Of a stretch of 64,000 nucleotides of DNA, positions 20,351 to 62,505 are shown piece after piece (the first letter of the stretch is position 1; the number at the start of each line of letters is the position of its first letter). The notes beneath the pieces were generated by a model. It did no database searches. It was given only the letters and a program-made list of their open reading frames with translations, and was not told where the DNA came from. Made by a program: the position numbers and the translations under genes. This DNA is from Candidatus Binatia bacterium (lineage in GTDB: Bacteria; Desulfobacterota; Binatia; HRBIN30). Location: contig JBBRSP010000024.1 of NCBI GenBank assembly GCA_038245295.1, positions 20,877-84,876 of the forward strand, in the 5' to 3' direction.

Positions 20351-21661
20351 GTGGTGCATCTCAAACTTCAGGGCGTGTGGCGAGGTACCGCATTCGGGCT
20401 GGCGTTGTTGCTCGCGTTGCTGGCGCATACCGCCTACGCGCGGACGACCAAACCGAAGGCGCATAAGCCCTCGAAAACTTCAAAAGCGAATCCCAAAGCG
20501 CCCAAGGTGTCGGTTTCCAAGCATATTGTTCAGGGCGGCCAGACCTTGACCAGTATTCTCTCGGACCATGGGTTGTCGCAACACGAGATCAACCAGTGGG
20601 ACGATGCGATGCGCACTGCGGCCGGCAACTTTCAGCTCAGCCCCGGCCACGTCTTGAACTTGCGCGCCGACAACGCCGGCCATGTGCTCAGCCTGAGTTA
20701 CGAAGTTGATGACCTGATGCGCGTGTTGGTTGAGAAGCGCGGCTCGCAGCTGCGTGGCCGCACCGAACCATTGCAGGCGCGGGTGAAAATGGTCGCCGCT
20801 GAGGGTACGGTCCAGAAGAGCTTCTTCCAGGCGGCGCGCCAGGCGAGTATTCCGGACCGCATTGTGTCGCAGATGGCCGACATTCTGGGTTGGGACTACG
20901 ACTTCCGCCGCGTCCGTCCAGGCGACCGCTTCCGCGTTCTGTACGAACGCCGCGTCAGTGCCGATGGGCGCCCACTGCCGCCGGGCAAGGTGCTGGCCGT
21001 GGAAATTCGCGGCGCGACACGCACCGCGCAAGCCTTCTATTATGATGATGCCGGCGAGGCGATCTATGTCGACGAGACCGGGCGCACCGTGTCGCGTGGG
21101 TTCTTGCGTTATCCCGTCGAGTTCTCGCGCATCAGCTCGCACTTTGCCAAACACCGCTTTCATCCGATTCTGCAGGTCGGTCGTCCTCACAACGGCGTCG
21201 ACTTCGCGGCACCGCAAGGAACGCCGGTGCGCGCGGCGGCGGACGGGGTTGTGACCATGGCCGGCCGCAACGGCGACTTCGGCAACCACATCGAGATCAA
21301 GCACGAGGATTCGTGGGTGACGACGTATTCGCATCTGCACGACATCGTCACTACGGTGCAGGTTGGGCAACGGATTCATCAGGGCACGGTGATTGGCCAT
21401 GTCGGCCAAACCGGTCTGGCGACCGGAGCGCATCTGCACTTCGCGCTCTTCAAGGGGAGCCAGTACCTGGATCCGCTGACCGCAACGGTCGACATCCATC
21501 GCAATGTCAAAGATGCGAAGCGATTCGCATCCGTGAAGCAAGTTTTACTACGTCAGATTGCGATGCTGGTGCGGCCACCGGCACCACTCACGGTGGCACC
21601 GATTCAGTTGGCGAGCCTGGCACCATCGCAGCAGCCAGGACCCATCACTCTGACCCAGTGA
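20351..21661 (+). CDS. M23 family peptidoglycan DD-endopeptidase (MepM-like)
   Basis: Signal/anchor, LysM-like segment, HNGVDF, YSHL, TGAHLHF; start uncertain. Confidence 0.92.
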   Translation: MVHLKLQGVWRGTAFGLALLLALLAHTAYARTTKPKAHKPSKTSKANPKAPKVSVSKHIVQGGQTLTSILSDHGLSQHEINQWDDAMRTAAGNFQLSPGHVLNLRADNAGHVLSLSYEVDDLMRVLVEKRGSQLRGRTEPLQARVKMVAAEGTVQKSFFQAARQASIPDRIVSQMADILGWDYDFRRVRPGDRFRVLYERRVSADGRPLPPGKVLAVEIRGATRTAQAFYYDDAGEAIYVDETGRTVSRGFLRYPVEFSRISSHFAKHRFHPILQVGRPHNGVDFAAPQGTPVRAAADGVVTMAGRNGDFGNHIEIKHEDSWVTTYSHLHDIVTTVQVGQRIHQGTVIGHVGQTGLATGAHLHFALFKGSQYLDPLTATVDIHRNVKDAKRFASVKQVLLRQIAMLVRPPAPLTVAPIQLASLAPSQQPGPITLTQ

Positions 21662-48615: not shown

Positions 48616-50208
48616 TCATCGGTGCACCAGATGGTGACCGTCGCAGTGACCGATTCCGTAGCGCCAGGCATACGGGCGAAAGCGCAAGCCGCGACGCCGG
48701 CAAAACTCGCGGACTTCGTCGGAAAGCGCATCTTGTGCGCCGAAGACCCGTGAAGAGGTGAGATCGAAACAGGTGACGCCGGCGGGCAGATGGAGCGGCT
48801 GTGGTGCACCAAAGGCTAGGATGACCTGGCGGCCAGCAGGCAAGGGAAGCTCACCCCACTCGGGCAAGAAGCGTACATCCGCCGAGCCTGCGAGCGCCAG
48901 CTCGACACCGCCGTCGCAGTCGTGACGCTGCACCTTGAATCCACGTTCGCGCAGTGCGTTCGCCATCTCTGGCATGAGCTCATCGATGAGCATCTTCTTC
49001 TGTTCGGCCAGCGACGGGGCGCTGATGTGGCGGATCACTTGCGCCGGCACGCCTCCGACCATCGTCGAGGCAGCCACGTTGACGGCGACGAAGGAGTTGA
49101 CCATCACCGTCGCGCCGTCGGCAATGCTCACCCCGGGGAATACAAACGCCTGATTTCCAATGAACACGTGGTTGCCGACTTGAATCGGACCGAACAACGA
49201 GCGGTAGCCGCGCAGCACCGATTGCCAGTGACTGTGTGTGAACAGCATGGCACGCGAGCCAATGCACACCTCGTCGCCCAACGTGATCGGATGACAGGGG
49301 TTCAAGTAAGCGCCCTCGCCAAAGAAGCAGGCATCGCCGGCACGTAAGTGCGCCCCTGCCTCGTCGCTGCCGCCACCGCCGATCACCACGTCGTCTTTCG
49401 ACCACAGCGCTGCGCCGATCTCGATCGAACGACAACGGGCCCGCGTGCGCTTGCCGAAGGCGGCTAGCGGTCTGAGGCTAAGGCGCTCGCACTCGATGCT
49501 CGAATCGGCACCGATGATCACGCCGTCGCCGAGGTGTACCTCCGCCGCGAGTAGGATGGCGCCGCTGTCGAGGCGCACGTGCTCGCCGATGTCGGCACCG
49601 TGCTCGCGATAGAGGCGCAGCTTGAGGTCGGAGGAGAGCGCCCGGAAGGCATTCGAATCGCGTCGCAAGTCATCGAGAAAGGCGGCGTCGAGTCGACCCT
49701 TGGCTGGCGCCACACCGACGCGAACCGCCGCTTCGACGTCACTAGCGGTAATCTCGCCACGGACACCGCTGCCGTGAATCGAGTCCAACGCTACGCCGCA
49801 TTCGCCCGCCAATCGTCGTGCCGCCGGAGAAGCGGTCGGGCGACGTGCCGACGCCGCGGGCCGCACGCCGGTTTCGTTCAGTGTCGCCCGATCTGTCGGA
49901 TTCGACGCATCGGATGGATTTGCAAGGCCGTTCGACATCCCCAGCCAGGTTTCGCGGTCGGGAACGACTTCGTCGGCAGATCCGATGAAAGCTAGCACTT
50001 CGAGCACCGCGACTCGCTGGCCGACCGGGACGACAACTCTGCGTAAGATTCCGGACGTTTCAGCTTCGACTTCAACGTTGATCTTGTCGGTTTCGACCTC
50101 GAACAGCGGCTCGCCCGCCTGCACGGCGTCGCCTTCGACCTTCATCCAGCCGCGAATGACACCATGGGTCATGTTGGCGTCAAGGATCGGCAGAGTCACC
50201 GCTTGCAT
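48616..50208 (-). CDS. Lipoyl domain + E1/E3-binding domain + hexapeptide-repeat acyltransferase fusion
   Basis: EVETDKINVEVEA; ASPAARRLA..GSG.RGEIT.SDV; LbH with LFTHSH, IGNQAFVFPGVSI, GGVPAQVI. Confidence 0.85.
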   Translation of the reverse strand: MQAVTLPILDANMTHGVIRGWMKVEGDAVQAGEPLFEVETDKINVEVEAETSGILRRVVVPVGQRVAVLEVLAFIGSADEVVPDRETWLGMSNGLANPSDASNPTDRATLNETGVRPAASARRPTASPAARRLAGECGVALDSIHGSGVRGEITASDVEAAVRVGVAPAKGRLDAAFLDDLRRDSNAFRALSSDLKLRLYREHGADIGEHVRLDSGAILLAAEVHLGDGVIIGADSSIECERLSLRPLAAFGKRTRARCRSIEIGAALWSKDDVVIGGGGSDEAGAHLRAGDACFFGEGAYLNPCHPITLGDEVCIGSRAMLFTHSHWQSVLRGYRSLFGPIQVGNHVFIGNQAFVFPGVSIADGATVMVNSFVAVNVAASTMVGGVPAQVIRHISAPSLAEQKKMLIDELMPEMANALRERGFKVQRHDCDGGVELALAGSADVRFLPEWGELPLPAGRQVILAFGAPQPLHLPAGVTCFDLTSSRVFGAQDALSDEVREFCRRRGLRFRPYAWRYGIGHCDGHHLVHR

Positions 50209-51179
50209 GCGAACATCTCCTGCACGGTGCGCACGATATCGGCGCGCTGCGGCAGCGCCACCGGCTCGAGAGCCGGGCTGAACGGAATCGGCGTATCGGT
50301 TGCACCGATACGCCGGACTGGAGCATCGAGGTATTCGTAGGCATGCTCGGCAATCAGAGCGGCGATCTCGGCGCCGACACCACCCGTACGCGGCCCTTCT
50401 TCGATGCAGACGAGGCGCCCGGTCTTGCGCACCGAATCAACAACTGTGGCGACATCGAGTGGCGCCAGACTGCGCAAGTCAACGACTTCGGCATCGATGC
50501 CCAGCGCAGCCAGTTCCTCCGCCGCGGCCAGAGCCACACCAGTGTAGTACGAGTACGACACCAGGCTGACGTCGCTACCGCGGCGGCGCACGATGGCCCG
50601 ACCGAGCGACAGGCAGTAGTCTCCCTCCGGCACGTCACCAATACTCGCGTACAGGAGCTTGTGCTCGACGAACAACACCGGGTTGTCGTCGCGTATCGCC
50701 GCCGTCAGCAGACCCTTTGCATCGGCCGGCGTCGACGGTGCAACGACCTTGAGACCGGGCACGTGTAGAAACCAGGCTTCGAGACTTTGCGAGTGCGTCG
50801 CCCCATAACAGCGACCGCCGCCCGCCGGCGTACGGATGACCAGCGGCACGCGCGCCTGTGGGCCGTACATGTAGCGAAATTTGGCAGCGTGGTTGGTAAG
50901 CTGGTCCATCGCCAGCGTCAAGAAATCCATGAACATGATTTCGACCACCGGCCGCATGCCGGTGAGCGCCGCGCCGGTTGCCGCGCCGACAATGATGGCT
51001 TCCGAGATCGGTGTGCAACGCACGCGCTCCGGCCCGAACTCGTCGAGCAGCCCGCGTGTTACCCCGAAGGCGCCGCCATAGGCACCAATGTCTTCGCCCA
51101 TCAAGAACACCGTCGAATCTTGGCGCATGGCATCGCGAAGAGTTTCCTGCAGGGCCTGCCAGTAGGTGAGCTCACGCAT
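50196..51179 (-). CDS. 2-oxoacid/acetoin dehydrogenase E1 beta subunit
   Basis: MGEDIG.YGGAF, TPISE, EIMFMDF, ATHSQSLE, DLRSLAPLD. Confidence 0.93.
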   Translation of the reverse strand: MRELTYWQALQETLRDAMRQDSTVFLMGEDIGAYGGAFGVTRGLLDEFGPERVRCTPISEAIIVGAATGAALTGMRPVVEIMFMDFLTLAMDQLTNHAAKFRYMYGPQARVPLVIRTPAGGGRCYGATHSQSLEAWFLHVPGLKVVAPSTPADAKGLLTAAIRDDNPVLFVEHKLLYASIGDVPEGDYCLSLGRAIVRRRGSDVSLVSYSYYTGVALAAAEELAALGIDAEVVDLRSLAPLDVATVVDSVRKTGRLVCIEEGPRTGGVGAEIAALIAEHAYEYLDAPVRRIGATDTPIPFSPALEPVALPQRADIVRTVQEMFACKR

Positions 51180-51203
51180 ACGGACTGTCCCGCTCCGTCG
51201 AGT

Positions 51204-52181
51204 TCATTCCCTCGCCTCCGCAAACACGCCTTCCGTCGCTGCCGAGGGCGGCGGAAACGGGCTTGCTTGCGCAAAGTCGACAGCCGTATCGACAGCGGCG
51301 AGAGCTTGGCGCGCGAGAGCATCCAGCTCGGTGGCCTTATCCAATCCATTCTCGAGCATGGCTTCGCGCAATCGAATGATCGGGTCACGTTGGCGCCACG
51401 CCGCCTCTTCCTCACGCGAGCGGTAGACACGCTGGTCGCTCTTGGAGTGACCGAGAAAGCGATACGTCTTGCACTCGAGGAGCGTCGGCCCGCGGCCGGC
51501 ACGAGCCCGCTCGACGGCGCCTCGCATGGCATCGCGGACGACAACAACGTCCATGCCGTCGACTTGAACTCCGGGCATTCCGTAGCTCGCGGCGCGCTCG
51601 GCGAGCTGCTCGATCGCGCACGCTTGACGCACCGACGTGGACATCGCGTAGCCGTTGTTCTCGCAAACGAAAATCACCGGCAGATGCCAAAGCGCAGCTA
51701 GGTTGAGCGACTCGTGAAAGGTTCCCTGATTGGTCGCGCCGTCCCCGAAGAAAACGGCCACCACCTGGTCGGTACCACGCATCTTCGCCGACAGAGCGGC
51801 GCCGGTGCCGACGGGTATGCCGCCTCCGGTAATGCCGTTCGAACCGAGGTGGCCGACCGCGAAGTCGGCCATGTGCTGCGTGCCGCCCTTGCCGCCACCG
51901 TAACCAGCGATCTTGCCGAAAAGTTCGGCCATCAGCCGGTTGGGATCGCCGCCTTTAGCCAGCAGATGCCCGTGGCCGCGGTGCGTGCTGACCACCCAGT
52001 CGTCGCGCCGTAGAGGAAAGCAGGCGCCGACCGCGACCGCCTCCTGGCCGACGTACGGATGAGTCGTACCGCGGATGCTGCCATCGCTCACCAGCTTGAG
52101 CATGCGTTCTTCGAACGCACGAATGAGGAGCATGAGATGCATCATCTGGCGCCCCTCCGCGGTAGTCAGCGACAGGCTCAT
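51204..52181 (-). CDS. TPP-dependent dehydrogenase E1 alpha subunit
   Basis: GQEAVA, THRGHGH, GDGATNQG...ENN, TYRFLGHS. Confidence 0.93.
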   Translation of the reverse strand: MSLSLTTAEGRQMMHLMLLIRAFEERMLKLVSDGSIRGTTHPYVGQEAVAVGACFPLRRDDWVVSTHRGHGHLLAKGGDPNRLMAELFGKIAGYGGGKGGTQHMADFAVGHLGSNGITGGGIPVGTGAALSAKMRGTDQVVAVFFGDGATNQGTFHESLNLAALWHLPVIFVCENNGYAMSTSVRQACAIEQLAERAASYGMPGVQVDGMDVVVVRDAMRGAVERARAGRGPTLLECKTYRFLGHSKSDQRVYRSREEEAAWRQRDPIIRLREAMLENGLDKATELDALARQALAAVDTAVDFAQASPFPPPSAATEGVFAEARE

Positions 52182-52876
52182 CGCCGCCCCGCCTCGGGAA
52201 TCGTCGACAGTTCTTTCACCACTTCAAAAGCCTCGGCGTAACGCCGGCCCATCTGGAAGCCGCGATGCGCGGCGCGCCCACGGATGGCTTCGAGCCATTC
52301 CCGACCGTACCGCGACAGCTGCGTCTTGTAGGCTTCGAGACACGCCATCTTGGTGTCGATCGTATCGCTGATGTCGACGAACTTCTGGGCGCGGAACGAG
52401 TGGGGGGTGATGCCGCCGGGAATCGTCGCCTCATACATGTAGACCGAGCATAGGTTGCGCCGCGTCGCCGCCAGCACGGCGCGCGACAAGGCTACGTGCT
52501 CGGGATGGCTGTCGCCGAGCCATTGCGTGTAGACGGCGGTCGGGCGCTCGCGGCCGAGAAGCTCGTCGATCACCCCGACGAGATGGGCATTGGGCTGCAG
52601 CGCGTGCCGCGGCATACCCAAGCTCATGAGCTCAGCACCGAGCAAGCGAGCTGCTTCGTTGGCTTCGGCGCGCCGGTGCTCGCGCTGATCATGACAGCGG
52701 TCGTCGCGACCGCCGGGAACTCGAAAGTTCACCATTACTACCCGGTGACCGCGGTGTACGTAGGCGGCTATCGTTCCCCCGGCGCCGATTTCGGCGTCGT
52801 CAGGATGCGCACCGAAGACGATGACTCGCTCCGCACCATTGCCCGGAACAGAGCCGGTTGCTGGCGAGTCATCCAT
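52178..52876 (-). CDS. PIG-L/LmbE family N-acetylglycoside deacetylase
   Basis: AHPDDAE, DSHPEH, FVDIS..K..YKTQ, YAEAF. Confidence 0.9.
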   Translation of the reverse strand: MDDSPATGSVPGNGAERVIVFGAHPDDAEIGAGGTIAAYVHRGHRVVMVNFRVPGGRDDRCHDQREHRRAEANEAARLLGAELMSLGMPRHALQPNAHLVGVIDELLGRERPTAVYTQWLGDSHPEHVALSRAVLAATRRNLCSVYMYEATIPGGITPHSFRAQKFVDISDTIDTKMACLEAYKTQLSRYGREWLEAIRGRAAHRGFQMGRRYAEAFEVVKELSTIPEAGRR

Positions 52877-53930: not shown

Positions 53931-54173
53931 TCACGCCACCGCGCGCGGTGCCTCGAGCTTCTCCGCGACAACGCGGAACGCCGCTCGCGCAGCGTCTTGC
54001 GCTGAGAGCACGCCGTTGAGCTCCAACATCTCCGGAACCATTACGCGCAACTTGTCGAGTAGTTTCTCGAACGTCGACGCTTCGGTTACGAGACCGGGGA
54101 CGTCTTCACTTGTGGCGAGCCAGACTGCAGCCTCGTCATCGTATTCGACTTTGACGGTGTACGGCTTACCCAT
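53931..54173 (-). CDS. DUF1902 (HicB-like) protein
   Basis: YDDEAAVWLATSEDVPGLVTEA..PEMLELNG. Confidence 0.88.
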   Translation of the reverse strand: MGKPYTVKVEYDDEAAVWLATSEDVPGLVTEASTFEKLLDKLRVMVPEMLELNGVLSAQDAARAAFRVVAEKLEAPRAVA

Positions 54174-54471
54174 AGGCCACCTACCTTGCCGGCGACATTA
54201 CCGAATTGAGCGGTCCTTGTCTGCCTCTTGCTGCTGGGCCAGCCGTGCGGTCGATTGGCGAGTGCGATGAGATCAATGGCTGGCTGATATGCCGCGTGGC
54301 TCAAACGGCCGCCTACACGCGGGCTTGCTCGATTGCAGAGTCAATGAGGCAGATTCGGCAAGTGGGCGCTCCCGATTGACGTGGGGGAGGCCGAGGTAGG
54401 GACTCCGGGTCATTCGTAGTGCTTCGACGATTCTTGGAAGAACTCTTTTCCCTTCTGGGCAGCGAGGAGGA

Positions 54472-55299
54472 TTACTCCGGATCAAACATCGGCGTCCAAT
54501 TGTCCAGCATGAGTCCGCCGTCGGCGACGATCGCCGCGCCGTTGATGTAGCGCGCGGCCGGTGAGCAGAGGAACAGGGTGACGCCTGCCACTTCGTCGGG
54601 ATCCGCCAGGCGATGCGACGGGATGTCGCGGATGGCGATCGCTTCGTAGTCGCTCTGCTCGGCGTGGGCGAACTCTTCTTCGCGCAAGCCGCGCGTTGCG
54701 ACCGACCCGGGCGCCAGGGCGTTGATGGTGACGCCGCGCCGCGCCCAGAAGTAGGCGAGGGAGCGCGTCATGCTCACGACGCCGGCGCGCGCCGCGCCCG
54801 AGTGCGCGAACACCGGGGCGCCGCGTTCGAACGAGTAGATGTGTACGATGTTCACCACCGAGCCGCTGCGCCGCTCGAGCATGTGTTTGCCGACACGGCT
54901 GCACATGTTCCAGGTGCCGTTGAGATTGAGATCGACCACGGCGCGCCAGCCGCGGTCGCTGATGTCCTGCGGCATGGCCGGGAACTGTCCGCCGGCGTTG
55001 TTGATCAGGCAGTCGATGGCGCCGAATTTGTCGATCGACTGCTGCACTAGCGACTCGACCTGATCAACCTCACGAATGCTCATCGGCACCGCCAGACAGC
55101 CGACGCCAAGTGCTTCGATCTCAGCCTTGGTCGGCTCGAGATTTTCCATGTTGCGGCTGGCGATGACGACGTTGGCCCCGAGCTTGGCGAACCCAAGAGC
55201 GATGGCGCGGCCGATGCCGCGGCCGCCGCCGGTGACCAACGCCGTCTTGCCGGCGAAGAGATGCTCGGAAAAAGTACTGAGTGGATCCAGGTCACTCAC
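54472..55299 (-). CDS. SDR oxidoreductase (peroxisomal 2,4-dienoyl/trans-2-enoyl-CoA reductase-like)
   Basis: TGGGRGIG, NNAGGQF, HSGAARAG. Confidence 0.9.
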   Translation of the reverse strand: MSDLDPLSTFSEHLFAGKTALVTGGGRGIGRAIALGFAKLGANVVIASRNMENLEPTKAEIEALGVGCLAVPMSIREVDQVESLVQQSIDKFGAIDCLINNAGGQFPAMPQDISDRGWRAVVDLNLNGTWNMCSRVGKHMLERRSGSVVNIVHIYSFERGAPVFAHSGAARAGVVSMTRSLAYFWARRGVTINALAPGSVATRGLREEEFAHAEQSDYEAIAIRDIPSHRLADPDEVAGVTLFLCSPAARYINGAAIVADGGLMLDNWTPMFDPE

Positions 55300-55303
55300 A
55301 GCA

Positions 55304-56716
55304 TCACCACGAGGTCGCCCAGTGCGGATGCCACGGCCGCTCTTGCTCAAACGCCCGCGCCGCTTGCAGCACCAGATCGTCGCGATGTCGCGGGCCGACG
55401 ATCTGCATGCCCATCGGCAACTGGTTGCGCGACAGGCCGACGCGCACGGTCGACGCCGGATGCCACGACATGTTGAACGGGATGGTGAAGGCCGCGACCC
55501 CAGCCAATACCTGGGCGCGCCCCTCGGTCTCTTCCGGGAACGGTCCACCCGCCGGCGGCGCGTCGTACGGCACCGTGGGTGTCACCAAGACATCGACCTG
55601 ATCAAACAGCTCGGCACACCAACGATTGAGTTTCTCGCGCTGCCGCGCCGCCACACCCCAATTGTCGGGGCGTACTTCCCAGGCCAGCTTCAACCCTCCG
55701 GCGAAAGCACGACCGAATTCTTTCTCGCGCTCCGGGAAGAACTCGTGCAGGTGCGAAGCAAGCTCGAAGACCCCGGATACAGCCCACTCGCGTCCCAACA
55801 GCGGCGGACCACCCTTGATTGGCACTACCGTGTGGCCGAGTTTCTCGAACACTTTGACGTTCTTTTCGACGGCCGCTGCAATATCCGACTGGACGACGGC
55901 ATACCCGAGGTCAGGGGAATAGCCGACACGCAGCTTACTCGGCAGACCGCGTCGGACCGCTTCAAGATACGAGATCCCTGGATGCGGCAGAGAGTTCGGA
56001 TCGAACGGCGAGGCGCCCACGACCTGGTCCATGAACAGCGCGGCGTCTTCGACCGTCTTCGTCGTCGGTCCGTAGACCGCCGTGTCCTGGAACTCCCAAT
56101 GCTGAAACGGTCCGCGCGGGATGCGGCCGAACGACGGCTTGTGGCCGAAGCATCCGGTGAAACTGGCGGGAATACGAATCGATCCACCACCGTCACTCGA
56201 CGTCACCAGCGACAACACGTTGGCCGCCATGGCGGCCGCCGAGCCGCCGCTCGATCCGCCGGGGGTGTGCGCCAGATTCCACGGCGAGCGCGTGACCCCG
56301 TAAACGAGGTTCTTGGTGATCGCGGTGTAGCCGAACTCCGGGGCGTTCGTTTTGCCGACAACGATGGCGCCGGCGCGGCGCAGGCGTTCGACCTGCGTCG
56401 AGTCTTCCTGCGCCACGTTGTCCTTGAAGATCAGCGAGCCATGCGAGGTGATCAAGCCTTTGGCGTCTTCGAGATCCTTGACGCCGAGCGGCACGCCTTC
56501 GAGCGGACGCGCCTCGCCGCGGGCGATACGCGTCTCCGCCTCTTGGGCTTCGCGGAGCAGTTGATCCCGATCGTACATGGCGACCACGGCATTGAGATCC
56601 GTGTTGGTCTCGTCGATGCGCGCAAACGTCGCCTGCATCAATTCAACCGGTGAAGCCTTCTTGTTGCGCAAGCGCTCGGTGAGCTCGATCAACGTGAGGC
56701 CGAGAAGTTCGTTCAT
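55304..56716 (-). CDS. Amidase signature family protein
   Basis: GVKD, GGSSGGS, SDGGGSIRIPAS. Confidence 0.94.
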   Translation of the reverse strand: MNELLGLTLIELTERLRNKKASPVELMQATFARIDETNTDLNAVVAMYDRDQLLREAQEAETRIARGEARPLEGVPLGVKDLEDAKGLITSHGSLIFKDNVAQEDSTQVERLRRAGAIVVGKTNAPEFGYTAITKNLVYGVTRSPWNLAHTPGGSSGGSAAAMAANVLSLVTSSDGGGSIRIPASFTGCFGHKPSFGRIPRGPFQHWEFQDTAVYGPTTKTVEDAALFMDQVVGASPFDPNSLPHPGISYLEAVRRGLPSKLRVGYSPDLGYAVVQSDIAAAVEKNVKVFEKLGHTVVPIKGGPPLLGREWAVSGVFELASHLHEFFPEREKEFGRAFAGGLKLAWEVRPDNWGVAARQREKLNRWCAELFDQVDVLVTPTVPYDAPPAGGPFPEETEGRAQVLAGVAAFTIPFNMSWHPASTVRVGLSRNQLPMGMQIVGPRHRDDLVLQAARAFEQERPWHPHWATSW

Positions 56717-56785
56717 ACGCAGTCCTCCAAATGATGAAGACTCGTACTATGCGCGTCACCAGCGGAAGGCAACCGCGGCGCCGGA

Positions 56786-56860
56786 GGTAGGCGGAGGTCT
56801 TCAGCCTGCGCCGTGTGGTCCAATGCAGCGCTACGCCGCAAGCTGAAGCTTGCGCCTACC
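56786..56860. repeat. GTAG-type REP doublet
   Basis: ggtaggcggaggtcttcagcctgcg and cgcaagctgaagcttgcgcctacc. Confidence 0.7.
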
Positions 56861-56877
56861 GTCGCGCCAACGCTCCG

Positions 56878-58167
56878 TTACGCTTGATGCGTGCGGCGGA
56901 TCTCGCGCATCAGGGCGATGTTGTCCGAGTGTCCGGTCTTGTGCGCCGTGATCTTGCCCTGCAGCGGTCGACCCAGAAGGTAGGAGTCGCCCATGATGTC
57001 GAGAATCTTGTGGCGCGCCAACTCGTCGGGGAAACGCAGCGTCGTATTCACGACCTTCTCGTCGTCGATGAGGATGAAGTTGTCGAGGCGACCGCCGTTG
57101 GCCAGACCCATCGAAGCCAGCGCCTTCATGTCCTTCAAGAAACCGAACGTGCGGGCCGGAGCGATTTCGTTGCGGAAGGACTGTGGACCGCGATGGTCGT
57201 AGGTGTAGTCCTGCGCCCCGACGGGGCGTGGGTAACGCAATTGATAGGTGATGCTGAATCCGTCGCTCGGCTCGATGGAAATCCACTCGCCGTCAGGATT
57301 GCCGACCAGCAAACGTTCGCGGATGACGATCGGCTCGGAGCGGGCGGCCTGATCTTCCCAACCGGCGCTGTCGAGCAGATCGCAGAAGGCGACCGCCGAG
57401 CCATCCATGATCGGCACTTCGCCCTGCATCTTCACCAGCAAGTTGGTGATGCCGTAGGCGTGACAGGTGGCGAGCAGATGTTCGATCGTCTTCGCCGTGA
57501 CGCCGTTGCGATGCAGGGTCGTGGCGTAGCCGGTCGAGTCGACCCAGGTGATGTCGGCCGGAACGATCTCGTCGGTCGACAAGCCGGTGAACTGGATGCC
57601 GCTGCCGGCGGCGAGCGGTTGCAGGATCAAGCCGGTTTTGACGCCGCTGTGCAGGCCGACGCCGCTCGCGACGACGCTGCGACGGATGGTGCGTTGACAG
57701 CGCGGTGTGCAGCCCGCGATGAGCGCGGGATCGCTGATGGAATCGGTATTCGTGGCCGGGCCGGGTGTATTGTCGCCGAGCGACTCTGTGGCGACGGAGG
57801 CGGGTTTGTGGTCGAGGGCGCGATTGACGACGCGCAAGAACGCGTCGAGGGAGAACGGCTTCTCGATGAAGTCGAAGGCGCCGAGGCGCGTTGCCTTGAC
57901 GGCGGTCTCGATGTTGCCGTGGCCGGAGATCATGATCACCGGCGGCGCCGACGGCTCTTCCTGTAGCTTCTCGAGCAGCTCCAAGCCGTCCATCTCCGGC
58001 ATCCAGATGTCGAGGATTACCAACTGCGGGCGTTCGCGCCGCACTGTCTCGAGCGCGGCGCGGCCGTCTTCGGCTTCGAGTACACGCAGGCCTTCTTCGG
58101 CGAGAATTCCGCGTAGCGAGGTGCGAATCTTTGGCTCATCGTCGACAACCAGAACGGTTTGCATCAT
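56878..58167 (-). CDS. lpxC: Receiver domain fused to UDP-3-O-acyl-N-acetylglucosamine deacetylase (REC-LpxC)
   Basis: REC: VVDDE, LDIWMP, ISGHG, EKPF. LpxC: QRTI..GVGLHSG, TIEHLL, EVPIMDGSA, ARTFGF, RHKILDIMGD, TGH. Confidence 0.92.
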   Translation of the reverse strand: MMQTVLVVDDEPKIRTSLRGILAEEGLRVLEAEDGRAALETVRRERPQLVILDIWMPEMDGLELLEKLQEEPSAPPVIMISGHGNIETAVKATRLGAFDFIEKPFSLDAFLRVVNRALDHKPASVATESLGDNTPGPATNTDSISDPALIAGCTPRCQRTIRRSVVASGVGLHSGVKTGLILQPLAAGSGIQFTGLSTDEIVPADITWVDSTGYATTLHRNGVTAKTIEHLLATCHAYGITNLLVKMQGEVPIMDGSAVAFCDLLDSAGWEDQAARSEPIVIRERLLVGNPDGEWISIEPSDGFSITYQLRYPRPVGAQDYTYDHRGPQSFRNEIAPARTFGFLKDMKALASMGLANGGRLDNFILIDDEKVVNTTLRFPDELARHKILDIMGDSYLLGRPLQGKITAHKTGHSDNIALMREIRRTHQA

Positions 58168-58174
58168 TCCTCCG

Positions 58175-60415
58175 TTACGCTTGCACGGCAGCGCGTTCGG
58201 GCGCCGTCCGCTTTCCGGTCGGTAGTTCGATCAAGAAACGACTACCACGCGGTTGGTTATCGAGCACCCGAACGTAACCCTGGTGATCGCTGACAATGGC
58301 GGAGACGATGGCCAGACCGAGGCCGGTGCCGTCTCGTTTGGTCGAGAAATAAGGTTCGAATAGGCGCATTTTCACTTCACGCGACATCCCGGTGCCATTG
58401 TCCGCCACCTCGATCCGCACGACGCCGCGCTCCGGAATGAACCGCGTACTGAGCGTGATGCGGCCCGGATCCGCAACAGCCTCGCACGCGGATACGGCGT
58501 TGTCGAGCAAGTTGATCATGACCCGTTTGATGGCGGCGCGATCGAGACGCAGCTCGGGGACTGTGGAACCTCGATCGAAGGTGAAGTCGATCTGCGGATG
58601 CCCCTCGCGAAACAGCACGAGCGCTTCGTCGATCAAGCCGTTGAGATCTTCGACGCCGAGCTCAACGGCCGGCAGGCGGGCGAAGGTCGAGAACTCGTTT
58701 ACCAGTCGCTTCATCTCGTCGACCTGCGACACGATCGTCGTGGTGCACTCGTCGAACACTTCGCGATCGTCGGCGGGAATCTGGTTCAGGTAGCGCTTGC
58801 GCAGTCGTTGTGCCGACAGTTGGATGGGTGTCAGGGGATTCTTGATCTCATGTGCCAGACGGCGCGCCACTTCGCGCCACGCCTCCATGCGCTGCACGCG
58901 CAGCAGGTGGGTGACGTCCTCGAAGAACAACAAGACGCCGCGATAGGCACCACTGTCGTCGGAGAGAGCCGTCGCACTGACGAGGGCGGTCATGATCTGC
59001 TCGCCGCCGGTCAGCTTCACTTGTTGTTCGACTTCACTATGCGGGTTGGCGGCGGCCTCGGCGACGAGCTCGGCGACGACGGAGAGATCGGACCGTCCGA
59101 GCACCTCCGCCGACGTCTTGCCGAAGACTTGCGTCAATCGCAGCCCCAACATGCGCTCGGCGGCCGGGTTGAGCATGGTGAGTCGGTCGTTGTCGTCGAT
59201 CGACACGACGCCGGCGGCGATGTTGCTGAGGATGCGTGTCAAATAGTTGCGGCGTTCGACGAGCTCCGAGTTGGTGGCGCGCAAGGCTTGCGTCATCTGA
59301 TTGAGCGAATTGCCGAGCGCTTCCGTGTCGCTGTCGCTGCCGGCTTCGAAGCGATAGTCCCAGTTGCCCTGCGCTACCTCGCGCGTGCCTTCGGCGAGGT
59401 TCTGCAGCGGCGTTGTGATGGCCTTCGCCTGCTGGAAGCCGAACCACATGGCGATGAACACGACCACCATGGTGACCAGCGCCATGGTCAGGGTATAGGC
59501 GCTGCGGATCGGTTGCTTCATGGAAGAGAGCTGGCGGTACTCTTGATACGACTTGGTGATCTCGCGTGCCTCATCGCTTACATCCCGCGGCACGATGTAG
59601 TCGACGACCACGGCGCCAACGGGGCTGCCATCGTCGGCCGTGGCGAGGATGCCGCAGCGCACTACGTGGCCGCGTCCGAGCTTTTCGGTGCGTGAGACCT
59701 CGTGTACGGAGAACAGCTCGCTGACGACCTCGCTCGTCAGTTCCGGCATCTGGGTCGCGTCTTCGCTCAAGGAACGACTGAGCGTTTGGCGCTCCGGGCT
59801 CAGAAGCGTGAGCCCGGCCAGCCCGTATTCGGCCCGTTTGGCGTCGACGTACTTCTGTCTCGCCTTTTGCGAGCGCGGATCGAACAGATCGTGTTCGGCG
59901 GCATCGCGGCCGACCTGGCGGGCGAAGAACAAAGCGTTGTTGGCGGCCGATTGATAATAGGTTTGCGCCACTTCGATGGCACCGCGCAGCGCATTGTCGA
60001 CGCGTAAATTGAACCAACGATCAAAGGCGGTGTTGAGGAGTCCTTGCGCCACGATGAACAGGAGGACGCTCGGGGCCAGAGTGAGTCCAAGGAAGGCAAA
60101 CGCCAAACGCGTGCGCAGGCGCGAGCCGAAGATGCCCCGCCGTCGTTCCAGCACCAGTTTTACGGCTTGCCGCGTGACCAGGAACATCACCAGCACGAGC
60201 AGCAACAGGTTGAGGTTGATGAGCAAGAAGAAGGTGACGTTGCCCGACCAGGAAGAGCTGTTGGTCAGGTGCACGAGCCGCGTCTCGAAGATCGCCAAAG
60301 CAAGGAAAATGGCGGCGACCGCAGCGATGAGGATCGACTCACGTCGTCGCCGCCGCCGTTCATCCGGTTCCACGGGTAAACGGCCACCGGCCAAGATGTC
60401 CCACCAACGCGCCAC
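58175..60415 (-). CDS. NtrY-like sensor histidine kinase (TM-HAMP-PAS-HisKA-HATPase)
   Basis: AWREVARRLAHEIKNPLTPIQLSAQRL H-box, NLLDNA, DNGTG, FEPYFSTK, GTGLGL; start uncertain (60373-60451). Confidence 0.92.
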   Translation of the reverse strand: MARWWDILAGGRLPVEPDERRRRRRESILIAAVAAIFLALAIFETRLVHLTNSSSWSGNVTFFLLINLNLLLLVLVMFLVTRQAVKLVLERRRGIFGSRLRTRLAFAFLGLTLAPSVLLFIVAQGLLNTAFDRWFNLRVDNALRGAIEVAQTYYQSAANNALFFARQVGRDAAEHDLFDPRSQKARQKYVDAKRAEYGLAGLTLLSPERQTLSRSLSEDATQMPELTSEVVSELFSVHEVSRTEKLGRGHVVRCGILATADDGSPVGAVVVDYIVPRDVSDEAREITKSYQEYRQLSSMKQPIRSAYTLTMALVTMVVVFIAMWFGFQQAKAITTPLQNLAEGTREVAQGNWDYRFEAGSDSDTEALGNSLNQMTQALRATNSELVERRNYLTRILSNIAAGVVSIDDNDRLTMLNPAAERMLGLRLTQVFGKTSAEVLGRSDLSVVAELVAEAAANPHSEVEQQVKLTGGEQIMTALVSATALSDDSGAYRGVLLFFEDVTHLLRVQRMEAWREVARRLAHEIKNPLTPIQLSAQRLRKRYLNQIPADDREVFDECTTTIVSQVDEMKRLVNEFSTFARLPAVELGVEDLNGLIDEALVLFREGHPQIDFTFDRGSTVPELRLDRAAIKRVMINLLDNAVSACEAVADPGRITLSTRFIPERGVVRIEVADNGTGMSREVKMRLFEPYFSTKRDGTGLGLAIVSAIVSDHQGYVRVLDNQPRGSRFLIELPTGKRTAPERAAVQA

Positions 60416-60520
60416 GGAGGGGATACTAGGGGGGGCGTCCGGTAGCCGCAAGGATTGGGTTGGGCGTCAGCTGGCGCTGTGTCGAGACTCCGGGATCAAA
60501 CCTGTGCTACAGACCGCGCG

Positions 60521-61732
60521 ATGTCAGCCTCGCCCTCGGGGAATTTGCCGTTGTCCGGCGTTCGCGTGCTCGATCTAGGCACGCGTATCGCCGCGCCGTT
60601 CGCAGCGACTCTGCTGGCCGACTTTGGCGCTGAGGTGATCAAGGTCGAGTTGCCAGGCAAGGGTGACTTCATGCGCGGCATTGGCCCATTCGACGAAGGC
60701 TACTCGTTGTGGTGGGCGGTGGAGGGGCGCGGCAAGAAGTCGATCACACTGGATCTACGCAAACCGCAGGGGCAAGCATTGCTGAAGCGTCTGGTACAGA
60801 TCTCCGACGTGGTCGTCGAAAACTTCCAACCAGGAACGCTCGAAGAGTGGGGCCTCGGCTATGCCGACCTGAAGGCCGTCAAGCAGGACATCATCCTGAC
60901 GCGCGCCTCGGTGTACGGACAGGATGGCCCGTACCGCGACCGCCCTGGTCTCGACCGCAACGGCATCGGCTTTGGTGGCCTGTTGTATCTCACCGGCTAC
61001 CCGGATCGGCCGCCGGTGCGCCCCGGGATCATCATCTCCGACTATCTCACCGGCGTCTTCAACGCCTTTGCCATCCTGATGGCGTTGTATCATCGCGATG
61101 TGCACCGCGGCGGTGGGCAATGGGTCGACCTCTCCTTGTACGAGTCGATCTTCCGTATCCTTGAACACACGGCGACGAGCTACGATCGTCTCGGCATCGT
61201 CCGCGGGCGCGAAGGCAACCGGCTGAAGAACTCGGCACCGCTCGACAACTACGAGACCAGCGATGGTCGGTTCGTTTGTATCGTCGCCGCCGGCGACGGC
61301 CTGTTCCCGCGCCTGGCGAAAGTCATGGGTCGCGAAGATCTGCTGCACGACGAACGCTTTGGTGATTTCCGGGCACGTGTGGCCAATGCCGACGCCATCA
61401 ATCAGATTGTCGCCGATTGGGCTCGCACGCGCAGTGCCGCCGATATCGAGGCGCAATTGGTGGCCGCCGAGGTGCCGGTGTCACGCGCCTACTCGATCGC
61501 CGACATCTTTGCCGATCCGCATTATGCGGCCCGCCAGGATATCGTTACGGTCGACGACCCGGTTGCCGGACCGCTGAAGATGTCGGCTGTGTATCCGCGC
61601 CTTTCCGAGACCCCCGGTCGCATCCAAAGCGGCGCCCCCGAGCTCGGAGCGCACAACCGCGAAATCTATGGAGAGCTGCTGGGTCTGACGGAGACGGAGC
61701 TGGAGGGACTGCGACGTGACGGGATCATCTGA
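60521..61732 (+). CDS. CaiB/BaiF CoA-transferase (family III)
   Basis: PLSGVRVLDL, LADFGAEVIKVE, ENFQPG, APELGAH. Confidence 0.93.
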   Translation: MSASPSGNLPLSGVRVLDLGTRIAAPFAATLLADFGAEVIKVELPGKGDFMRGIGPFDEGYSLWWAVEGRGKKSITLDLRKPQGQALLKRLVQISDVVVENFQPGTLEEWGLGYADLKAVKQDIILTRASVYGQDGPYRDRPGLDRNGIGFGGLLYLTGYPDRPPVRPGIIISDYLTGVFNAFAILMALYHRDVHRGGGQWVDLSLYESIFRILEHTATSYDRLGIVRGREGNRLKNSAPLDNYETSDGRFVCIVAAGDGLFPRLAKVMGREDLLHDERFGDFRARVANADAINQIVADWARTRSAADIEAQLVAAEVPVSRAYSIADIFADPHYAARQDIVTVDDPVAGPLKMSAVYPRLSETPGRIQSGAPELGAHNREIYGELLGLTETELEGLRRDGII

Positions 61733-61754
61733 TGATTGGGTGAATCGGGCGAAT

Positions 61755-61782
61755 GTAGGGGCGGTTCGCGAACCGCCCCTAC
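61755..61782. repeat. Perfect 28-bp GTAG palindrome
   Basis: Identical to 41598-41625. Confidence 0.85.
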
Positions 61783-61827
61783 AGCATCGCCGCGTGCGTC
61801 GGGCCAACGGATGGGGAGGGAACAGCG

Positions 61828-62505
61828 ATGCAAGACGATCCGATTCTAAGCGCGGTGGCGGCCAGCGCCCTGAAGCATGTCTCCGACGGGGCGATTGTTG
61901 GGCTCGGCACTGGTAAAGCGGCGAGTGCCTTCGTGCGTGCTCTTGGCGAGCGCGTGCGCGCCGGATTGAAGGTGCGTGGTGTGCCCACCTCGGTCGCGAC
62001 GGAACAGTTGGCGATCGAGCAGAAGATTGCGCTGGTCGAGCTCGATCAGGTCGACTCGATCGATGTGACGATCGACGGCGCCGACGAGGTCGACCCGCAT
62101 CTCAACCTCATCAAAGGATACGGCGGCGCGCTGGTGCGCGAGAAGATCATCGCTTCGGCGTCGCGACGCTTCATCATTCTCGTCGGCAGCGAGAAGCTGG
62201 TGCAGCGGCTGGGTGAGCGCGGCAAGCTGCCGGTCGAAGTGATTCCCTTCGCCGTTTCAGTGTGTCGCCGCCGTCTGACCGAGATGGGGCTGAGCCCAGT
62301 GCTGCGGCTGCAGGGCGACAAGACGTTTGTCAGCGACGGCAACAACGTCATCCTCGATTGCGGTGTGAAAGGTCTCGATGCGCCGCAGCGTCTCGAGGCG
62401 GAGTTGCGCGCCATTCCCGGTGTCGTCGGAACCGGCATGTTCTTGCAGATGGCCGACGCGGTGCTCGTCGGCGAAGCCGGTGGCGTGCGCGAACTGACGC
62501 GGTAG
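61828..62505 (+). CDS. rpiA: Ribose-5-phosphate isomerase A
   Basis: GLGTG, IDGADEVD, IKGYGGALVREKI, LPVEV, IPGVV.TG. Confidence 0.95.
   Translation: MQDDPILSAVAASALKHVSDGAIVGLGTGKAASAFVRALGERVRAGLKVRGVPTSVATEQLAIEQKIALVELDQVDSIDVTIDGADEVDPHLNLIKGYGGALVREKIIASASRRFIILVGSEKLVQRLGERGKLPVEVIPFAVSVCRRRLTEMGLSPVLRLQGDKTFVSDGNNVILDCGVKGLDAPQRLEAELRAIPGVVGTGMFLQMADAVLVGEAGGVRELTR

Follow-up and report, generated by a model that had tools for sequence, protein, structure and literature searches.

An LpxC deacetylase fused to an NtrX-type receiver behind an NtrY-like kinase: candidate two-component control of lipid A synthesis in Candidatus Binatia

Response regulators with enzymatic outputs include CheB, PleD/WspR, RpfG and the REC-PP2C proteins, REC being the receiver domain. 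The activity of LpxC, which carries out the committed step in making lipid A, can be tuned by a protein acting outside the active site, as described for LapB in Escherichia coli and MurA in Pseudomonas aeruginosa (PMC11046580, PMC9995270; here and below the literature is cited for those sections of each source that were accessible). The two-component system NtrYX has been linked to lpxC and to the level of lipopolysaccharide (LPS) (PMC7240162, PMC12444477), and in Rhodobacter sphaeroides it is described as acting on lpxC negatively and indirectly (PMC7240162). In Desulfovibrio vulgaris the regulator DVU2934, which goes with DVU2931, has lpxC (DVU2917) as its single mapped target, behind a predicted sigma54 promoter, and in Syntrophobacter fumaroxidans the operon orthologous to DVU2931/DVU2934 has lpxC directly upstream (PMC3333781); in the accessible text of two further sources (PMC4114195 and bioRxiv 2021.11.05.467447) only the D. 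vulgaris operon is mentioned. A 2026 review names allosteric control of LpxC, and the setting of lipid A flux outside enterobacteria, as open questions (PMC13333357). Here we describe a gene in which an NtrX-type receiver and a complete LpxC form one protein, REC-LpxC, encoded directly behind an NtrY-like histidine kinase. It lies in a 64,000-nucleotide (nt) stretch of a Candidatus Binatia genome (assembly GCA_038245295.1, contig JBBRSP010000024.1, forward-strand positions 20,877 to 84,876), hereafter the window. The fusion is real, ancient and widespread. We give roughly even credence to the full proposal that two-component aspartate phosphorylation reversibly switches LpxC catalysis, that this arrangement arose once by fusion of a sigma54 activator to its target gene with loss of ATPase, enhancer and promoter, that it supplies the sole LpxC of this class and of parts of several phyla, and that it marks an allosteric site on an antibiotic target.

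The REC-LpxC protein, the adjacent kinase and their distribution

Profile searches bear out the initial annotation of one open reading frame (ORF) joining an intact receiver to an intact LpxC. Pfam matches Response_reg at residues 5-113 (119 bits) and LpxC (PF03331) at 158-423 (276 bits), with neither an AAA+ nor a helix-turn-helix (HTH) match in the same scan, again as annotated, and the TIGR00325 lpxC profile scores 261.1 bits, above its curated cut-off of 187.25. Every residue named in the annotation is present: the receiver pocket retains D9, D10, D53 (in LDIWMP), S81, F100 and K103, and alignment to solved LpxC structures places the motifs TIEH (E229/H230), HKILD (H386/K387/D390) and TGH (H413). 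The best NCBIfam match for the receiver is the NtrX model NF051870, at 131 bits against a cut-off of 600 and over the receiver region alone, and against the LpxC-FabZ model (NF009667/PRK13188) the protein reaches 197, where the cut-off is 465. The LpxC domain superposes on 3nzk_A (Z 38.1, root-mean-square deviation (rmsd) 1.7, 273 aligned residues) and the receiver on the NtrX receiver 4d6x (50% identical, Z 21.5, rmsd 1.3); structure searches returned matches to single domains only, with no chain carrying both. The low-complexity linker reported between the domains exists and is predicted to be disordered at residues 125-150, but measures about 36 residues (121-157) and not about 30. The protein ends 16 residues past H413, and the E. 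coli-type C-terminal degron LAXXXXXAVLA is absent from this end.

A search for a second, stand-alone lpxC in the same genome (96.6% complete) found none. The genome also carries lpxA, lpxB and lpxK, and lipid A synthesis should therefore depend on REC-LpxC; two lpxA copies, at C12:51592 and C3:195968, are above the TIGR01852 cut-off. As the sole copy in such a genome, REC-LpxC is the presumptive deacetylase of UDP-3-O-acyl-GlcNAc.

The kinase has three N-terminal hydrophobic segments, a periplasmic region (about residues 130-302), a fourth transmembrane (TM) segment, HAMP (330-380), PAS (392-503), HisKA (H522) and HATPase_c domains. A haem-binding PAS domain is a trait of NtrY kinases. The best NCBIfam model is the LIC_11548 family (289 against a cut-off of 750), with no NtrY model among the 25 best matches. 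The H-box is the same in fused-operon kinases and in kinases from the lpxC-ntrY-ntrX clusters described below, and all 34 fused-operon kinases have intact H- and G-boxes.

Of 41 genomes from the same family or order, counting our own, 39 contain a single lpxC match, and each of the 30 loci retrieved from those 39 is fused with the kinase directly upstream. Across the class, 139 of 151 genomes give a full-length match (two with an internal TGA), eight a partial match and four none; the kinase is also upstream at all 20 class loci viewed with extended flanks, 11 of which were in the earlier set too. The architecture and the NtrY synteny seen in the window thus hold across genomes. Three of the eight partial matches (G057, G097, G135) have their halves in different frames and three others stop at contig edges. 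Gene fission, considered for genus g44 and G135, was rejected because the kinase gene is frameshifted as well, which makes assembly frameshifts likely.

Both Pfam domains occur in all of the best 120 homologues, several of them labelled Ca. Binatia. Elsewhere in the phylum a fusion-type LpxC was found in 23 of 117 genomes, from 13 families (13 by full-length match, eight confirmed at the locus and two inferred from long open frames). The best 38 loci from named genome records comprised 35 in-frame fusions, two frameshifted and one stand-alone gene, the other 42 loci being stand-alone; the labels include Syntrophobacter, Syntrophorhabdus, Desulfomonile, Nitrospina, Thermoanaerobaculia, Holophagae, Thermodesulfovibrionia and Bdellovibrionales, although titles of records from metagenome-assembled genomes may be wrong. 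In the cultured Desulfomonile tiedjei a long form of 701 residues (WP_014811810.1) is encoded on a 6.5-Mb contig. Two loci labelled Syntrophobacter(aceae) (L091, L093) encode a kinase and REC-LpxC, with receivers nested among those of the class, whereas S. fumaroxidans is described as lacking the fusion; these loci would reflect transfer or mislabelling. In five of five tested fusion genomes without a neighbouring kinase, one orphan ntrY orthologue lies elsewhere, with no receiver within 1.5 kb. Databases name members of the family plain LpxC or NtrX, so the family is hidden.

A homologue search gave 4,792 hits at E<=1e-100. With rows rich in gaps dropped, 530 unique in-frame fusions were aligned (362 short, 166 long and two intermediate). 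D53, the phosphoacceptor proposed at the outset, is near-invariant (527/530), and D9 (509), D10 (528), S/T81 (530) and K103 (528) are similarly kept; the six LpxC catalytic residues are present in all 530. Linkers span 24-67 residues in short fusions and 258-348 in long ones, and most fusions end 15-18 residues beyond the catalytic His.

Origin of the fusion and cis-elements before lpxC

Three states of the locus were found: a stand-alone lpxC; REC-AAA+-LpxC proteins of about 680-750 residues; and REC-LpxC. A stand-alone lpxC is often followed by an ntrY-like kinase gene and then by a REC-AAA+-HTH regulator, an order also present in records labelled Acidobacteria and Deltaproteobacteria. Of 17 loci picked because such a receiver was seen, mostly near lpxC, 14 have the order lpxC-ntrY-ntrX and three ntrY-ntrX alone, so that 14/17 is not a frequency. 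Two proteins of about 500 residues are REC-HTH-LpxC. Scored for AAA+ motifs, the long fusions have lost GAFTGA, Walker B and the arginine-finger motif (each 0/54) and kept Walker A in 46/54, whereas free NtrX-like regulators retain GAFTGA in 22/24, Walker B in 23/24, the arginine finger in 20/24 and Walker A in 23/24. In our reading the REC-AAA+-LpxC proteins, with a dead AAA+ domain, are intermediates of a series that leads from separate genes by way of such a fusion to REC-LpxC, and the linker of REC-LpxC is the site where the ancestral AAA+/HTH part was deleted. The series was not seen in the initial annotation and is new here.

In a quick IQ-TREE analysis of 116 LpxC domains, with class members subsampled, a single branch separates 70 fused or frameshifted rows from 46 stand-alone rows with a Shimodaira-Hasegawa-like approximate likelihood-ratio test (SH-aLRT) value of 100. 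Fused against stand-alone requires one change on this tree, and long against short at least five. The fused LpxCs are thus likely to form one clade with a single fusion origin, which is short of proof because the tree is quick, it contains long branches and its rows were gathered by similarity to fusions. In the receiver tree all fused receivers group with those of the cluster NtrX proteins, apart from 14 other receivers of the same genome, and identity to the cluster NtrX receivers is 52-62%. The assignment of the receiver to the NtrX type, made in the initial annotation, agrees with this grouping and with the match to 4d6x. Tree and identity together suggest that the receiver descends from the NtrX-like sigma54 activator whose gene accompanies lpxC in relatives; we call these cluster regulators NtrX-like because they score 490-534 against NF051870, below its cut-off of 600. 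With one query at E<=1e-95, a free NtrX-type AAA+ domain turned up in 0/27 fusion genomes and in 68/94 others of the same 121 genomes, kin among them not being independent. An exception to the series is G206 (L078, L079), which has a divergent, long-branched REC-LpxC and also a stand-alone lpxC with both sigma54 box and candidate enhancer beside ntrY. No free NtrX was detected in G206, and it could be an intermediate, a transfer or a bin mixture.

Upstream of stand-alone lpxC, a sigma54 -24/-12 box (at least 10 of 12 positions, within 150 nt) was found at 12/22 cluster loci and 16/38 others (28/60; shuffle means at most 0.25), in contrast to 0/34 fused-operon kinases and 0/38 kinase-less fusions (0/72) and 0/28 unfused kinases. 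A palindrome, TGT-N12-ACA, was found post hoc in 18/22 cluster loci as a candidate enhancer and recurs in the independent set (22/38; shuffle mean 2, maximum 6), giving 40/60 overall; it precedes 0/34 fused operons and 3/38 kinase-less fusions, which is chance level (3/72 overall). In records from several phyla, the distance upstream is 30-110 nt for the box and about 70-250 nt for the palindrome (loci with box or palindrome: L079, L084, L085, L142, L144, L162, L166, L169, L179-L192, L126-L168). The spacing of the DVU2934 motif, GTGTG-N5-CACAC, is not clearly enriched before lpxC (5/22, against a shuffle maximum of 5). From these patterns, the NtrX-like regulator probably drives lpxC transcription in relatives, and the cluster NtrX-like protein would bind the TGT-N12-ACA element; a candidate NtrX-like/sigma54 regulon for lpxC is thereby predicted in genomes labelled Desulfobacterota, Nitrospirota and Acidobacteriota. 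The fused operons have neither cis-element and the 27 fusion genomes yielded no free NtrX, so that a control of lpxC once exerted on transcription now appears to act directly on the protein. A gene of about 190 residues with an N-terminal hydrophobic stretch, which we take to be DUF4390-like, accompanies ntrY in unfused and some fused lineages (between lpxC and ntrY in L084, L085, L181 and L190; upstream of ntrY in L217 and L220), and is not beside the window kinase; a search of our genome for DUF4390 (PF14334) gave no match, nor did its control anywhere.

Candidate phospho-control of LpxC and alternative readings

The AlphaFold2 model of REC-LpxC has a predicted local distance difference test (pLDDT) score of 91 and a predicted template-modelling (pTM) score of 0.88, the linker alone being disordered; a distant member modelled with 51 non-Binatia sequences gives a pTM of 0.87. 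For undocked domains about 0.65-0.68 would be expected, which generous assumptions raise to about 0.77 at most, and the receiver is therefore read as docked on LpxC in these models. A two-chain prediction of receiver 1-124 with LpxC 153-429 (score 0.02, mark 0.32) speaks neither for nor against docking by the rule of the tool. Compared with 121 stand-alone sequences, fused LpxCs are marked by K246 (98% against 3%, where E is usual) and G179 (99% against 4%), and V166, L244, H236, Y238, C262, Y396 and T411 are likewise rare in stand-alone LpxC. V166, G179, L244 and K246 belong to strands that are close together in sequence topology, and some of these residues may form a docking face, although clade ancestry alone could also explain them. 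The motif GGS..A.V, which presumably lines the acyl-chain tunnel in other LpxCs, has its S, A and V changed to R360, F/C364 and L366, and at such positions these residues may alter chain specificity or gating.

We lean slightly towards a reading in which the kinase and REC-LpxC are a cognate pair and the phosphorylated receiver, docked on LpxC, allosterically switches the deacetylase; the direct phospho-control proposed in the initial annotation is to this extent partly supported. The NtrY-like kinase would read an envelope or redox cue and set D53 phosphorylation. The docked receiver would then alter deacetylase activity, by relief of inhibition or by activation, possibly with receiver dimerisation. 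The operon itself would be expressed from a housekeeping-type promoter, and fast control of lipid A flux would have replaced the sigma54-dependent transcription that lpxC had in the ancestor. Phosphorylation probably raises activity, by a modest tilt, since the ancestral activator, once phosphorylated, would have increased the expression of lpxC.

Several points weigh against this reading. As to its direction, loss of NtrYX in R. sphaeroides raises lpxC mRNA 8.8-fold and also LPS (PMC7240162). Docking is read from a single summary number per model, in which contacts are not seen; inter-domain covariation is incoherent over 301 and 530 sequences (effective sequence numbers 104 and 136), its top pairs being scattered and often buried; and the receiver has no fusion-specific conserved surface relative to free NtrX. 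Linkers of 24 to 348 residues fit tethering as well as fixed docking. The receiver clade has an SH-aLRT of only 83, on 119 columns, and a LapB-like protein with tetratricopeptide repeats (TPRs) and a Zn ribbon in the same genome leaves room for proteolytic control.

Proteolytic control belongs to the main alternative, which we consider rather unlikely and in which D53 is phosphorylated but acts on the amount or place of LpxC, through a degradation signal (LapB-like/FtsH, ClpXP or Lon) or recruitment to the membrane or a partner. Receiver-gated proteolysis is known from RssB/CtrA-type systems, and the genomic evidence for a cognate pair fits this equally well. Proteolysis is also the main control of LpxC in E. 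coli (PMC11046580). The LapB-like protein matches NF008756 far below the cut-off (E 5.5e-6), with Zn_ribbon_LapB at its C-terminus. Against turnover, the LAXXXXXAVLA tail is missing and most fusions stop 15-18 residues past the catalytic His, YejM (PF11893) was not found in the 96.6%-complete genome, and the AlphaFold2 models suggest a docked and not a free receiver. The LapB-like protein itself (C36:23065-24360, L171) has N-terminal membrane segments before its TPRs and LapB-type Zn ribbon and could be a LapA-LapB-like fusion; another Zn_ribbon_LapB match was set aside as it looks like RadA/Sms by eye.

It is improbable that the receiver is a relic of the fusion whose retention serves folding, solubility or translational coupling, its phosphorylation being irrelevant. 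Relic parts do exist in the family, the AAA+ part having decayed after fusion, and the receiver is conserved at the same positions as free NtrX. However, D53, K103 and S/T81 are kept at 99% or more across lineages with fusions as little as 34-50% identical while the AAA+ decayed, the phospho-site is unchanged through at least five switches between long and short forms, and the kinase is retained with intact motifs even when unlinked. A little less probable still is a receiver that serves as a phosphate sink, or as a tether through which LpxC or substrate load modulates the kinase, the actual output lying with a different response regulator. The conserved phospho-site, the dozens of other receivers in the genome and the variable linkers would suit such a role, but none of those receivers belongs to the NtrX/fusion clade, identity dropping to 45.6% for the next best, and with no free NtrX found in fusion genomes there is no obvious second output. 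The split frames in G057, G097 and G135 would be all that an assembly or gene-calling artefact could draw on, and there the frameshifted kinase genes point to assembly indels; with 530 unique in-frame fusions, the D. tiedjei form among them, conservation refutes an artefact and we give it practically no weight. At the window, a Logan contig of a possible source run covers 56827-57931, linker included, with 0 differences, which answers the call for sequence spanning the linker though not independently of the assembly source; other DNA sequencing runs cover the linker piecewise only. GC content at codon position 3 is similar in the receiver, linker, LpxC and kinase (0.76-0.84).

Operon signals, neighbouring features and known systems

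The features of the operon are collected in the table. The 7-nt gap to the first ATG of REC-LpxC and its GGAGGA are as initially annotated, but as GGAGGA abuts this ATG the second, at 58164, is the likelier start; it gives 428 residues, as in database entry P0003. The GTG start of the kinase lines up with the ATG starts of related kinases. A sigma70-like pattern lies upstream of 16/34 fused-operon kinases (shuffle mean 1.4, maximum 5). A generic promoter and terminator scan found nothing at the operon ends, the window's own sigma70-like element being too weak to be listed. With this element so close to the GTG, the mRNA may be leaderless.

Table. Features of the kinase and REC-LpxC operon, in window coordinates
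Feature	Position	Strand	Basis or remark
Putative sigma70-type promoter TTGCGG-N17-TAGTAT	60423..60451	-	7 nt before kinase GTG; function inferred
NtrY-like membrane sensor histidine kinase, 746 aa	58175..60415	-	domain scan; GTG start
Shine-Dalgarno GGAGGA in 7-nt gap	58168..58173	-	sequence
REC-LpxC ORF	56878-58167	-	single open frame, 429 codons
NtrX-type receiver domain, aa 1-120	57808..58167	-	PF00072; D53 phosphoacceptor codon 58011-58009
Linker, unconserved, aa 121-157	57697..57807	-	pLDDT <50 at 125-150
LpxC deacetylase domain, aa 158-429	56878..57696	-	E229, H230, H386, K387, D390, H413

Right after the REC-LpxC stop codon, at 56770-56875, lies a palindromic repeat resembling repetitive extragenic palindromes, with 52 matches genome-wide, which may act as a terminator or mRNA stabiliser. 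The same 14 nt surround the stop codons of the kinase (58169-58182) and REC-LpxC (56872-56885), and both proteins end QA. An Rfam scan of 54000-62000 gave 0 matches. Elsewhere in the window, at 48616-52876 on the minus strand, genes for a PIG-L deacetylase, E1 alpha, E1 beta and a lipoyl and E3-binding protein with a hexapeptide-repeat domain replacing the usual E2 core form an unusual, dehydrogenase-like module, perhaps with a role in polysaccharide acylation.

Receivers on enzymes and allosteric control of LpxC are both already known. A full-text search that did not extend to subscription papers and response-regulator censuses, where a passing mention is possible, turned up no receiver fused to LpxC, and neither did term searches in the accessible text of two reviews (PMC12444477, PMC13333357). 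As a single chain, receiver-LpxC offers a switchable, purifiable system (beryllofluoride (BeF3-), D53 mutants) in which to locate an allosteric site, and a simple way to read out the signal of NtrY kinases, which is still unclear. If control is as proposed, such a site would be marked on a major antibiotic target. The series of fusion states with matching loss of cis-elements would document with unusual completeness how a transcriptional circuit turned post-translational.

REC-LpxC shares the fold and catalytic residues of LpxC (TIGR00325/PF03331). It differs in that it lacks the C-terminal degron, has a clade-specific surface and carries GGR360 for GGS and L366 for V in the tunnel region. Of the FtsH/LapB/YejM control of E. 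coli, the degron is absent here, the YejM family was not found and the LapB-like match is weak. Compared with LpxC controlled by LapB or MurA, the regulator here would be a covalently attached receiver wired to a membrane kinase. With NtrY/NtrX it has in common the kinase architecture (TM-periplasmic-HAMP-PAS-HisKA-HATPase) and a receiver with DIW[ML]P and SGHG, but unlike NtrX it has neither AAA+ nor HTH and so no transcriptional output. The D. vulgaris DVU2934 control of lpxC matches the unfused state described here and differs from the fusion in being transcriptional, in using separate proteins and in its motif spacing, its orthology to the cluster NtrX being putative. LpxC-FabZ (NF009667/PRK13188) is also a fused LpxC, but its partner is a C-terminal metabolic enzyme. 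Like the CheB-type regulators, REC-LpxC combines an N-terminal receiver and an enzyme in one chain; whereas their outputs are mostly signalling enzymes, its output is an essential, committed biosynthetic enzyme present as the sole copy.

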